The position numbers were made by a program, and so were the translations under genes. DNA of 61,396 nt, counting the filler, from Hausera hauseri (lineage: Eukaryota), in the NCBI GenBank assembly GCA_046269625.1. It is 12 parts of 12 records of this genome, joined end to end, with 100 filler letters (N's around TTAATTAATTAA, not from the genome) between each part and the next. Parts side by side here need not be neighbours in the genome. Positions count along the whole stretch, not along the records: positions 9,987 to 14,252 come from JBJURY010668219.1; 11 more parts are not named here. One strand, written 5' to 3'. Below, piece after piece: positions 10,177 through 14,252 of the stretch (its first letter is position 1; each line of letters opens with the position of its first letter). Under the pieces are notes generated by a model. That model saw only the letters and a program-made list of their open reading frames with translations. It had not been told where the DNA came from and ran no database searches.

Positions 10177-10516
10177 TCATGTTATTGCAGATCCAATCAG
10201 TCCACCCAGTAATGACGTGACAATCAGTAGAATTGCACCAAGGAATCCGCCATCTTTCTGGTACATGACCTCTCGTTTCAGTCGTTTACTACGGGAGTTG
10301 GCAAGGCCAATAAGCCGTTTTCGATACTTTAGTAAATTCCGCATTCCACAACCAATGTCAACGTGACCCACAACGATACTGTATAAAATTTCCATCAAAT
10401 CGTTTACTACAAATTGTGGGAATGATCGTAGCATGTTTTGCTTATGTCTCGTAGGTGCTTTGAGCAAAGCAATAAAGTACAGCAAACTACGTTTGAATCG
10501 AATTTTTTGGACGCAT
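10177..10516 (-). CDS. Polinton/adintovirus pX-like small protein with GG|FL protease site and C-terminal amphipathic helix
   Basis: ...KRLKREVMYQKDGGFLGAILLIVTSLLGGLIGSAIT; lies downstream of the packaging ATPase; 5' end frameshifted. Confidence 0.7.
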
Positions 10517-10540
10517 TGATGCTAATGAGACGTAGTTGTT

Positions 10541-10713
10541 TATAACCGTTGCGACTGTGACGGTAATTTGCGTCTAGCTGCTGCTGTTGTTGTTTGACGA
10601 AGCACAGAATTGATTAATCGCTTTACTGTAGCGGTTCGTTTTGATATACGTTTCTTGCCGAGCACCAGCTTGGAAGGTTTTCGTTTAACAATTGTTTTTC
10701 ATAAATTCCTCAT
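10541..10713 (-). pseudogene. Small Lys/Arg-rich putative virion core protein
   Basis: MRNL*KTIVKRKPSKLVLGKKRISKRTATVKR...; a homolog MKNFRKTFVERKPTKQVPKKKR follows the second ATPase copy (57972-58053). Confidence 0.5.
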
Positions 10714-10723
10714 TTTGTCACAA

Positions 10724-11386
10724 TCATATAGTCGGTTTTTGAATTTGTTTATAGACACATACAAAACCTTTCTGATTGAAAATGTCTGTTCGTACACTCA
10801 CGTCATCGGGACACTGCTGTGTAAAGTCAATGAACAAGTATCCGTGTGGCTCGGTTGTAGCATCATGATATGCATCTATTAAGTAGGCTCGATTGTGAGT
10901 AAATGCTTGTCGTGCAACATAATCAATGATAGTCTGATCACGGGGATTTTTGAACAGCATCAAATAGTGTACGTTTAGATTTCATGTTCGATGATGTCCA
11001 CCCTGATGGAACATGTTTTGCGTAGTGATAATAACCGTCACACCACAGTGCCGTGCAATCTTCGTGAACAGGTTGTTGAAGTCCGATTGTTTCGTCGTCT
11101 CTTGAAATAAATCGTCAATGACAATAACGTCACCGTTGCGCAATCTCTCTGAACAGATCTCACCAAATTCATCAATTACCGTTATCGATGATTTCAGTTT
11201 ACAAAATTCCTGATGTGTCAAACCGGACTAACCATAATCACCAACACCCTGATGCCAGTATATGTGATTGTACCGCGGTGAATGGGACATGTCACGGTAG
11301 TTCTGCAATAGTCTACACACAAAATGTGTTTTGCCACTTTCACTGGGGCCTACAATCTGGAAAATGGCATCATTCTGCAGCTTCAT
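10724..11386 (-). pseudogene. Polinton-type A32/FtsK-like DNA packaging ATPase
   Basis: One frame: MKLQNDAIFQIVGPSESGKT (Walker A)...VIVIDD (Walker B)...ARHCGVTVIITTQN...LFKNPRD...PHGYLFID, with two in-frame stops (11228-11230 and 10982-10984). Confidence 0.92.
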
Positions 11387-11478
11387 CTAATAATAATAAT
11401 GCAGCTTTTCCTCAACAAATGATTGGTTTATAATCGTGTTACACGAATATAAATAGCTACAGTATAAACACTGTTTTC

Positions 11479-11940
11479 ATAATTTTAGCTAATATCAACT
11501 ATCGCGGATATGTTACCGAGTGTAACATTAACACACTACCTTTTAATCAATGGAAACCGATGCAGCATGTCCTAAAGTGTCCACCGGATTTTACATGCAT
11601 CATATTTCAATCGGGAAAGTGTCGTGTTATGGGCTGACGCAAACCAATCACAGCTGAAAGCAGTAAGAGTAAACTACTACCAATCGGAATTGTCCTTGAC
11701 AAAATCCAATCAATAACGGTAACGACTCAGTTAGACTACCAAACAATCAATCTTTACAAATTAGCAATGACCGCTACTGAATGTACATATGAACCCAAAC
11801 TGTTTCTTGCACTGAGACTGACACCGTTTCGTCCGCTTTTTGTCAATGTGTTCAGCACTGGAATAATTGTTTTACTCGGTATTCGGACAGTGGACTATGA
11901 ACCAATTATTAATCAAATTAAAAACTACATAAATGTTTAG
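11479..11940 (+). pseudogene. TATA-binding-protein (TBP)-fold protein, element-encoded (not in ORF track)
   Basis: ILANINYRG...TCIIFQSGKCRVMG*RKP...IQSITVT...INLYKLA...YEPKLFLAL...VNVFSTGIIVLLG shows both TBP repeats (IFxSGK; YEPELFP; IFxSGKxVxxG). The start is ATA and there is one TGA at 11635-11637. Confidence 0.8.
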
Positions 11941-12283
11941 TGAACCAAAATAACATACTCTGCATACAAAAACAAACTATAAATACCATTCCCATGCTCA
12001 TTAAGACATTACTACCATGAAAGACGAATACGAAACTGTTTGATTTTATCGGTCGCGAAATGTCTCATGTACCCGATGATGATGGTAGTTTAAAGTGTCG
12101 AATGAATATTAAACTGCAAGGATACAAGGAAAAAGTCGGTATCAAAAGCCCGATTTAGCGTGTAGCAGAAGCACATTTTAATTATCAATAGATTTTGTTG
12201 TTTTACCGTTCTTCTTCTTCTTCTTCTTCTTTTATTAACCCAATTAGCAAGTAATGCAATTTTAAAAAATAGGCATAAGAATA

Positions 12284-12754
12284 ATGATTATGAATTATGT
12301 AAAGATTATCTTAACAGACAAAAATGCCTTTGTACCCAGACGTGTTACAGCAAACAGTGCAGGCTACGATGTGCTTTCCAATGCCATTGTGACAATTCCG
12401 AACAGCAAAATCAAATGCATAACGACTGAGACTCGATTGGCGATTCCGCCCGGTTACTACGGCCAACTTTTATCGAAAAGCGGATTGGCAAAGCTCGGAG
12501 TGACAGTTGTGGGCGGCGTCATTGATTCAGACTTTCGTGGTGAAATTAAGGTGTTGCTTGAAAACCAATCCGTGGAACTGTATGCTTTTTCGAAAGGCAA
12601 TGCAATCGCACAAATCGTTTTTCTTCGCTGTGAAGAGGTGGAATTCAGTGTAATGTCACCGAAACAATGGGGATTCTTTTGTGTCAATGAATCAACACGA
12701 AATGAACGCAAAGTATTTGGTTTTGGTGATATGGACAAAACCACCTATGTTTAA
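12284..12754 (+). CDS. dut: Trimeric dUTPase
   Basis: Motifs AGYDV, KSGLA, GVIDSDFRGEI, IAQIV and a degenerate motif 5; ORF is open. Confidence 0.93.
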   Translation: MIMNYVKIILTDKNAFVPRRVTANSAGYDVLSNAIVTIPNSKIKCITTETRLAIPPGYYGQLLSKSGLAKLGVTVVGGVIDSDFRGEIKVLLENQSVELYAFSKGNAIAQIVFLRCEEVEFSVMSPKQWGFFCVNESTRNERKVFGFGDMDKTTYV

Positions 12755-12809
12755 TAATTGTGATAATAATAATAATAGTTAGTTATTTTGTTTATATTAC
12801 AAACAAAAA

Positions 12810-13319
12810 ATGACTTTGTACGAGATAAGTAATGGGACAGGATTTATAGATATTGAAGCTTTCCAAGGTGATAATGCCTGGTACATAATAATGGAATTAT
12901 GCATTATGGACGTCGGTAACATTTTCAAACCGCTTGTGTACGTATTTAAGCCCGCCGTTACGTGGAATCATTTGACAGAAAAGGGGAAAATTACCAATGG
13001 ATATCTCATACGATGTCGTCATTGACTTTATTGGAACGAAGGCAATTCAACGTTTTGCGTATCATGTATCCTGCGAGACATTTGTGATCATTTTGACATT
13101 GAAAATACAATATTTTACATTAAAGATCAAATTGACGTACAAAAGTTTACACAACTTCATTCACAGTTTCCCGAGTTGCAAATGAAGACGTATTCAACAT
13201 CGAACAGCTCGCTAACGATGGTACCTGACAATATTATATGTCCGTATCGTTATCATAGACCGAATTGTGTTTACAAAAATTGTCTACGGCTTTGAATTGA
13301 CTATATTTCATCCAAGTAA
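12810..13319 (+). pseudogene. DEDD/DnaQ-like nuclease-family protein of Polinton-like elements
   Basis: FIDIEAFQ...IIMELCI...FKP..W..L...TN.YL...H*LYWNEG...CPYRYHRPNC; two in-frame TGA. Confidence 0.6.
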
Positions 13320-13434
13320 ATAAATGTTTTTCTCTGTTTCTTTTTTTCTTTCCATAAATAACGTCCGCCATATTGGTCAGTTGAATAATTCAAAACTATA
13401 AATATGAGTAGTTATAGTAATAACAATCATCATC

Positions 13435-13920
13435 ATGGAAATAGTTATTTAACTGGAGCAATTGCAAAATTTTGATGGATTATCAATTTCAGACTTGGTA
13501 CGATAATGGCAAGTAATTGATAGTGAGCTGGTTGCCACAGCAGTAGGTGATTTGGGATTTAAAGAAGATTAGGAGTTAAGGTCATTGATGACAGCAAGAA
13601 AAGATTGTAAATCTACAGAAAATCTAATTATTGTGTTAAACCAAATGTACATTAACCGATCGCATGATATAAATTTTTTCAATGCCGTTGAAAAGGTACG
13701 CGGTGAATTAAAGAACCTGAAATCGAAAATAACTGACAATGTACGAGACTGTCACTATATGTGTGTACTACGTAAACAAAGAAAAGTGGATACGGTATTC
13801 TTAATGTGCGGCCATCTCGTTGTTTGTCCAATGTGTTCCACCACCACCGCCGCAGTAACCCACCAATGTCCAGAATGTAAATGTGCTATAGTGGAAATTG
13901 TATACATTTATTATGAATAA
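13435..13920 (+). pseudogene. IAP-type C-terminal RING E3 ligase with possible UBA-like region; no BIR seen
   Basis: TVFLMCGHLVVCPMCS...CPECKCAIVEIVYIYY. The in-frame upstream ATG at 13435 is followed by three stops; upstream segment AVGDLGFKED*ELRSL. Confidence 0.7.
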
Positions 13921-14076
13921 ACAAATACATTGACTTTTCTGTAACTCAACAGCTTCGTGGTGGAGCAATTTGTTACAATGTTGACACATATAAACAAAAC
14001 AACGTGTTGAACATGTATATATAGCGGTATAATTTCATTTCACTCCGTCTCTGCCTTTACAACAACAACAACAACA

Positions 14077-14252
14077 ATGAATTCTAGTGAAGCATTCAAA
14101 TTCAATGATAATGCTGCTGCTGCTGCTTCAAGTCAACCGCGATACAATCAATATTCAGTCAGACCGTCTCGGTTGTACAATGGCTACAAATTGAACTACC
14201 TACGAACGCCCATTCAATTGTCATTGGCGCAACCGGTCAAACTCAAACAGGT
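14077..14252 (+). CDS. Hypothetical protein, truncated by contig end
   Basis: ATG after an (ACA)n leader, co-oriented with the accessory gene cluster. Confidence 0.35.

Follow-up and report, generated by a model that had tools for sequence, protein, structure and literature searches.

A decayed Maverick copy in the Hausera hauseri assembly and a candidate TBP-TATAAAC gene switch in its relatives

Mavericks (Polintons), the elements described as adintoviruses (PMC8502044), share an A32 packaging ATPase, a pX-like gene and degraded endogenous copies with the element studied here, a fragment that fills positions 9987-14252 (JBJURY010668219.1) of a 61,396-nucleotide (nt) stretch of the Hausera hauseri assembly GCA_046269625.1. 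We refer to the whole stretch as the window. Relatives of the fragment likewise carry the rve integrase, penton, double jelly-roll (DJR) capsid and adenain genes of adintoviruses. In the parts of PMC8502044 used here, the adintovirus maps (Supplementary Fig. S2) already label dUTPase, MAEL, SSDBP and IAP, the animal maps bear no label for a TATA-binding protein (TBP), the passages contain no promoter motif, and the legend of Fig. 5 names a TBP-like gene on MELD viruses. Literature searches turned up no publication describing a TBP of Mavericks or its promoter, and the terms TBP and TATA are absent from main-text passages of PMC11131425, PMC10748475, PMC11161782 and bioRxiv 2026.10.13.758929. 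The closest described viral TBP mimics are those of the beta- and gammaherpesviruses. As given in excerpts of PMC12529657, ORF24 of KSHV (Kaposi's sarcoma-associated herpesvirus) has 752 amino acids (aa), has polar residues at the positions of yeast V122, T124, V161 and L205 on its DNA face, lacks the acidic residues that contact TFIIB, binds RNA polymerase II with other viral proteins and goes together with the variant box TATT at late genes.

The best explanation is that the contig is a copy, decayed and likely integrated, of a multi-copy Maverick whose intact relatives encode a TBP of about 150 aa, carry TATAAAC about 35 nt before most of their other genes and likely switch on their own virion genes; we put the probability of this reading at roughly 0.6. 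That the contig is a decayed Maverick is, taken alone, very probable. What stands out is the Maverick mini-TBP together with a variant TATAAAC box; the remaining accessory genes belong to kinds known from adintoviruses. The presence of the TBP-like gene is indeed a pointer to some independence of the element in transcription.

The mini-TBP gene lies at 11482..11940 on the plus strand. It matches the Pfam TBP family (E 2.4e-11) and is 72% identical to an intact homologue, P0001, and it lacks an ATG where the family starts and has a premature stop at 11635-11637. Of 3,222 candidates in a profile search, 653 proteins reached E<=1e-10, and the lower ranks may include cellular TBPs; the residue counts given below are those of the best 120, whose median length is 150 aa. 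The family model (pLDDT 88.9) predicts a two-repeat saddle in which the first repeat has strands only, its helices missing, and the second has both helices. In Foldseek the model matched TBP structures at E ~1e-7 with TM scores of 0.58-0.72, the PDB matches listed at E<=0.001 (n=44) were TBP entries, and the top matches, at E 1e-7, were cellular TBPs, which ranked ahead of those of giant viruses. A scan of genome contigs gave TBPs of cellular or giant-virus type only (n=5). Against these five, a thin outgroup, the mini-TBP formed its own branch in a quick tree (49 rows, 36 of the 120 homologues among them).

With cellular and archaeal TBPs (Pfam PF00352) the mini-TBP has in common the predicted saddle, three of the four intercalating Phe residues (F40 120/120, F101 119/120, F117 120/120), the first residue of the Asn pair and the TFIIB stirrup EPELFP, which is near invariant (E97 115/120, P98 120/120, E99 120/120). 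It differs from them in its length of about 150 aa, its helix-less N-terminal repeat and its fixed polar base-facing residues. The first intercalating Phe has no aligned equivalent, although F20 (114/120) may stand in for it, and Ser takes the place of the second Asn in 117 of 120. The near-invariant residues N6 (115), R46 (119), M48 (120), S72 (117) and N115 (119 of 120) occupy positions that hold V/I, V, T/L, N and L, respectively, in the reference TBPs, and C113, likewise different from the reference TBPs, is fixed as well. We take the five positions to correspond to yeast V71, V122, T124, N159 and L205. These yeast residues are listed as DNA-facing in Table 1 of PMC12529657, in the portion available. 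The near invariance of the changed positions would fit selection on DNA contacts. ORF24 has polar changes at several of the corresponding positions. The mini-TBP resembles ORF24 in being a viral TBP mimic with a polar DNA face, and it differs in being one small domain that keeps the acidic residues. The likeness would be one of function, by analogy, and we claim no shared origin.

The relatives come from a metagenome scan that found 15 loci, ten of them with genuine TBP-like genes (L001-L010); all ten are partial and their genes are largely open. The TBP-like gene stands beside the ATPase and pX genes in L001, L003, L005 and L006 and beside the ATPase alone in L002 and L004. In six relatives the TBP-like gene and the ATPase lie no more than 2 kb apart, and in L005 the two are arranged head to head. 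The rve integrase adjoins the ATPase-pX block in L003, L005 and L006 (L006 rve E 2.6e-15). Penton and capsid genes occur in L006 and L007, and a capsid-protease-DEDD arrangement in L007 and L008; in L006-L008 the capsid was recognised as DJR-like at E 0.039 and the protease as Peptidase_C5 at E 0.003, and the penton was named from its position. A RING gene is found in L006, DEDD genes in L007, L008 and L010, and a gene for a single-stranded DNA-binding protein (SSB) in L001-L004 and L009. The genes linked to the TBP-like gene in relatives include those for the ATPase, pX, integrase, penton, capsid, protease, DEDD, RING and SSB, and seven TBP-like proteins probably share a contig with a capsid match, as judged from an identical length of the longest contig (10,087-22,064 nt). 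Neither a dUTPase gene nor a protein-primed PolB was found in these ten partial loci, and PolB was also absent from the contig. Five further loci (L011-L015) gave weak 42-residue matches and were discarded as relatives. The loci L016, L017 and L020 (match at 10001) and L018 (10001-10324) comprise bacterial metagenome-assembled-genome contigs with TBPs of eukaryote or giant-virus type, and an intron-broken eukaryotic TBP; these are probably binning contamination.

The preliminary description of this DNA had reported TATAAA upstream of several genes and AATAAA at their stops. TATAAA is indeed enriched in the contig (13 vs 5.5±2.4 in 300 shuffles), whereas AATAAA is not (8 vs 8.1±2.7), and just 2 of the 7 genes checked have it at their stop. 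The contig has 7 copies of the heptamer TATAAAC (1.2±1.1 expected), L001 has 11 (2.0), L003 9 (2.1) and L006 8 (2.1), and the remaining 11 contigs of the window have none or one apiece. Positions were analysed in seven loci with a TBP-like gene, leaving aside L002 as a near duplicate and L009 and L010, which have no virion genes. An ORF start lies 30-46 nt downstream of 27 of the 44 TATAAAC sites (at 33-37 nt for 23 of them), against a background of 2.75%, and 43 of the 44 sites are on the virion-gene strand. The same test gave 2/36 for TATAAAA, 3/28 for TATAAAT, 0/16 for TATAAAG and 0/8 for GTAAACA. The box precedes the ATPase in 5/5 cases, pX in 4/4 and the capsid gene in 2/2.

The ATPase, basic and pX genes of the contig are likewise preceded by the box, on the minus strand: at 11426..11432, 46 nt before the ATPase start and with no gene end nearby on that strand; at 10747..10753, 40 nt before the basic gene and within the 3' end of the ATPase; and at 10538..10544, 38 nt before the pX family start. 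A fourth minus-strand box, at 10167..10173, lies just past pX, where in relatives a box precedes the next small gene (L001 5557, L003 5264, L005 912). The TBP genes of the relatives differ in having TATAAAC within 130 nt upstream in 0 of 10; a canonical TATAWAW lies at 36-41 nt in 6 of 10 and ATTGG is present in 5 of 10. In the contig, the likely host-type promoter of the TBP-like gene (11422..11455, plus strand) comprises ATTGG at 11422-11426 and TATAAATA at 11448-11455, 34 nt before the family start. TATAAAC was also seen inside coding sequence at L005:1475, L006:2816, L006:5479, L006:5889 and L007:2351, in corresponding places (the ends of the ATPase, penton and capsid genes, and the pre-capsid gene), where its bases appear to be doubly coded.

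These observations suggest a two-step mechanism, which the sequence data make somewhat favoured. Host RNA polymerase II would first read the TBP-like gene from its canonical TATA box. The mini-TBP would then bind TATAAAC and could recruit host TFIIB through its EPELFP stirrup, so that the packaging and capsid genes would be driven by the mini-TBP at TATAAAC. The SSB, dUTPase, nuclease and RING proteins would back protein-primed replication in the nucleus. It is about an even call whether a large Maverick clade runs such a herpesvirus-like two-stage programme, in which a 150-residue TBP of changed specificity would read TATAAAC and recruit host TFIIB for capsid and packaging genes. The question bears on how animal Mavericks/Polintons time their genes and whether particles are made, and an element-encoded TBP with one variant box offers a direct test through one small protein and a 7-nt motif. 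If the reading is true, the mini-TBP would be a minimal natural TBP of altered specificity, reached independently of herpesviruses, and the sequences themselves would be evidence for a regulated cycle of virion making in these "transposons". The copy in the window cannot run the proposed switch and is an ordinary relic.

The relic state of the contig is evident from its reading frames. Premature stops interrupt the basic gene (10701), the ATPase (11230, 10984), the TBP-like gene (11635), the DEDD-like gene (13023, 13293) and the RING gene (13450, 13504, 13570), and the pX and TBP-like genes lack an ATG at the family start; only the dUTPase and the contig-truncated last ORF are open from their own ATG, and pX is open with its first ATG internal. 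An alternative genetic code was rejected, since all three stop types break genes whose relatives read open under the standard code. The nine premature stops in 1,082 codons amount to 0.83 per 100 codons; random substitution at 5, 8 and 10% gave 0.50, 0.80 and 0.97. In the quick tree the terminal branch leading to the TBP of the contig measures 0.26, compared with 0.058 and 0.085 for intact sisters. Seven sequencing runs carry parts of the contig, and in four of them all 30 of 30 bins are covered. In one run, X1, 30,991 short contigs align along it, 3,015 of them at 99% identity or more, 8,611 at 95-99%, 14,100 at 90-95% and 5,265 below 90%; most are less than 99% alike, which is the pattern expected for a multi-copy family; their summed depth is not equal to copy number. 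Second ATPase and TBP-like copies are also present elsewhere in the window. From the decay and the copy number, the contig is likely a host-integrated Maverick copy.

Several observations weigh against this account. The 30-46 nt range was set after the data had been seen, and the loci are related, L001 and L003 closely; the binomial p of 3e-31 therefore exaggerates how certain the result is. Four of the ten TBP genes have no canonical TATA box at 36-41 nt, and in the window a further TATAAAC lies at 11463, 19 nt before the TBP gene itself. The box also precedes non-virion genes (the RING gene of L006, the DEDD gene of L008 and unassigned ORFs), and it may be general in Mavericks, with or without a TBP gene. 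Cellular TBP tolerates TATAAAC: in plant protoplasts (PMC10005294, Table 4), 27% of expression was left with TATAAACG, and PDB entry 1qn3 is TBP bound on a C(-25) box. With regard to integration, X1 is possibly the source sample, and no host-DNA junction was seen for the 9987-14252 copy. Finally, 17 of the 27 boxes have an upstream stop within -3 to +12 nt, which makes a role at 3' ends possible.

In a rather improbable alternative, the decayed Maverick would be the same, host TBP would read all promoters, those with TATAAAC among them, and the mini-TBP would act as a decoy or repressor by sequestering TFIIB or further factors of the host. The weak use of TATAAAC by host TBP and the invariant stirrup agree with such a role, as do the missing helices of the N-repeat and the one Phe without a clear equivalent. 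A decoy would not readily explain why the 120 homologues hardly vary at the altered base-facing positions, or why a single variant box is used uniformly and is avoided by the TBP genes. It is unlikely that TATAAAC is instead a 3'-end signal or a Forkhead-type site that falls before starts through tight gene packing. In 6 of 14 cases ATAAACA behind a different first base stands before a start, and many boxes adjoin an upstream stop as noted above; yet 10 of the 27 lie at least 32 nt from a stop, the spacing to the next start is tight, GTAAACA scores 0/8, 43 of 44 sites share one strand, and the ATPase box of the window has no upstream gene on its strand.

The preliminary description had taken the gene content to suggest a more autonomous mid-sized virus than a typical Maverick. 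The accessory genes are real, linked and recurring, and TBP, dUTPase, SSB, nuclease and RING together do recall giant-virus gene classes; the SSB fold matches proteins of nucleocytoplasmic large DNA viruses (NCLDV), and one TBP match is on a 32-kb contig. A free virus apart from Mavericks is nevertheless quite improbable, because six of the eight genes are broken or start-less, the relatives have rve integrase and adenain, and the mini-TBP fold is nearest to cellular TBPs. The integrase and the ordinary Maverick module of the relatives place the element in the Maverick/Polinton clade. Most of the accessory classes are already on adintovirus maps, and the accessory load is therefore no mark of another virus class. 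Neither the contig nor the partial loci L001-L010 contained a recognisable RNA polymerase gene or any other core gene of giant viruses. IMG/VR scans with the TBP, ATPase and capsid alignment gave no relative, a blank that says little on a free virus. The least probable alternative, already largely refuted, is an assembly chimera of unrelated ATPase and accessory genes; a chimeric join of this kind would, by the preliminary description, have refuted the autonomous-virus idea. The contig is short, its family is multi-copy, and the joins 12200-12284 and 13320-13435 have no bridging piece among the pieces listed. The critical ATPase-TBP join is not chimeric: it is spanned in two other runs by X3 record 21 (11334-11555) and X4 record 29 (11334-11570), and the two genes are near neighbours in six relatives. 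The dUTPase-DEDD join is bridged by X4 record 30 and X6 record 21, and the join of RING and the last ORF by X7 record 32.

The contig is the third of 12 in the window, has 4,266 nt and 37.5% GC, and is flanked on each side by an N44-TTAATTAATTAA-N44 linker; its ends are assembly linkers and not element ends, and the contigs, of 4-7 kb, are N-linked. It is an internal piece of the element, and integrase, DJR capsid, penton, adenain and PolB were not found within 9987-14252. The divergent layout described earlier was confirmed, with pX-like, basic and ATPase genes on the minus strand and TBP-like, dUTPase, DEDD-like and RING genes and a last ORF on the plus strand, and the translated frames of 9987-14252 gave no sign of introns. 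The labels TBP, dUTPase, RING and ATPase were upheld by Pfam. An Rfam search gave 0 matches.

The pX-like core protein gene (10177..10506, minus strand) has an open frame without an ATG at the family start, and the ORF called earlier (from 10434) begins internally. It is 42-48% identical to open ORFs in L001, L003, L005 and L006, of which the L006 copy matches Adeno_PX at E 0.011. The gene for a basic, Lys/Arg-rich protein (10540..10713, minus strand) has a premature stop at 10701-10699, and a second copy lies at window positions 57984-58049. The A32/FtsK-type packaging ATPase (10724..11386, minus strand) has premature stops at 11230-11228 and 10984-10982 and matches Pox_A32 at E 5.8e-4 when the stops are read as X; it is 62-63% identical to open copies in relatives, the L006 copy reaching E 1.3e-6. 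A small broken ORF preceded by TATAAATA occupies 11978..12190 (ORF 12017-12190) on the plus strand, and loose ends of alignments at 11938 and 12026 suggest that other copies have additional sequence near 11938-12026.

The dUTPase gene (12284..12754, plus strand) has an open frame and matches Pfam at E 5.5e-23. Its five motifs are recognisable by what we take to be the standard patterns, the last one being degenerate. The gene called a DEDD-like nuclease (DEDD/MAEL-like; 12810..13319, plus strand) has premature stops at 13023 and 13293 and is 31-32% identical to open ORFs in L008 and L010. Conserved columns of acidic residues and of Cys/His, and the first D/E-x-E motif, are seen in the family; no Pfam or PDB match was obtained, and the putative label comes from the motifs. 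The gene for a protein with a C-terminal RING (C3HC4; zf-C3HC4_3 E 5.9e-6) runs from 13435 to 13920 on the plus strand, with TATAAATA at 13397 and stops at 13450, 13504 and 13570. A frameshift was first assumed in this gene and was dropped in favour of the start at 13435. In L006 an open RING gene of 153 aa adjoins the ATPase.

The last ORF (14077..14252, plus strand; cut at the contig end) had been considered an orphan. It is instead a member of a family of 80 clusters at 50% identity in a profile search, and we regard it as the 5' part of a gene for a predicted single-stranded DNA-binding protein of T7 gp2.5 type with an OB fold; hhalign to family A7 gave a probability of 96% (E 3.6e-9, 37 columns). 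For the family model (pLDDT 96.3), the top four of 48,161 chains were CP312R of African swine fever virus (ASFV), DUF2815, the Enc34 SSB and T7 gp2.5, with Z scores of 6.5-7.1 (next 4.8), a Z below 8 being moderate. The predicted fold is like that of T7 gp2.5, Enc34, ASFV CP312R and ranavirus P31K, with root-mean-square deviations of 2.6-3.9 over 97-118 residues, while the family, at about 120 aa, is 5-14% identical to the T7 gp2.5-type proteins; its DNA binding is a prediction. The model also matches giant-virus proteins, ranavirus P31K (E 7.5e-3) and a baculovirus DNA-binding protein. P31K binds single-stranded DNA according to the part of PMC8734342 consulted. An ESM Atlas search returned nothing above 0.82, and Pfam and PDB sequence searches with this family gave nothing useful.

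The other contigs of the window hold retrotransposon pieces, pieces of eukaryotic genes and further Maverick fragments. At 34015-38060, a second, more degraded TBP-like copy (35356-35739) lies head to head with a piece of an SSB-family ORF (34650-35027), in the layout of L001-L003. The contig 54609-61396 contains, interleaved, an integrase piece (54738-54956), a piece of a testin/prickle-type LIM gene (55472-56642) and ATPase and basic pieces (57975-58293), the ATPase piece being 69% identical to the ATPase at 10724..11386. The LIM piece suggests an animal as host, and the window seems to be of mixed origin. Penton- and capsid-like Maverick pieces occur at 25103-29105, where an apparent deletion joins the penton to mid-capsid. 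PolB-like pieces, named by eye, lie at 44476-47831 on the contig 42441-48389, and common repeat families of 140-300 nt are found at 29206-29440, 34015-37360 and 42900-44090; these shared repeats may be subterminal Maverick repeats. The contig 19141-25002 has a CpG observed/expected ratio of 0.55, compared with 0.84-1.21 in the other contigs, and probably derives from another organism. Pieces of one Ty3/gypsy-like family, 79-87% identical, lie at 3313-4948, 15792-17915 and 38161-41955, and pieces of dynein heavy chain and kinase genes adjoin them.

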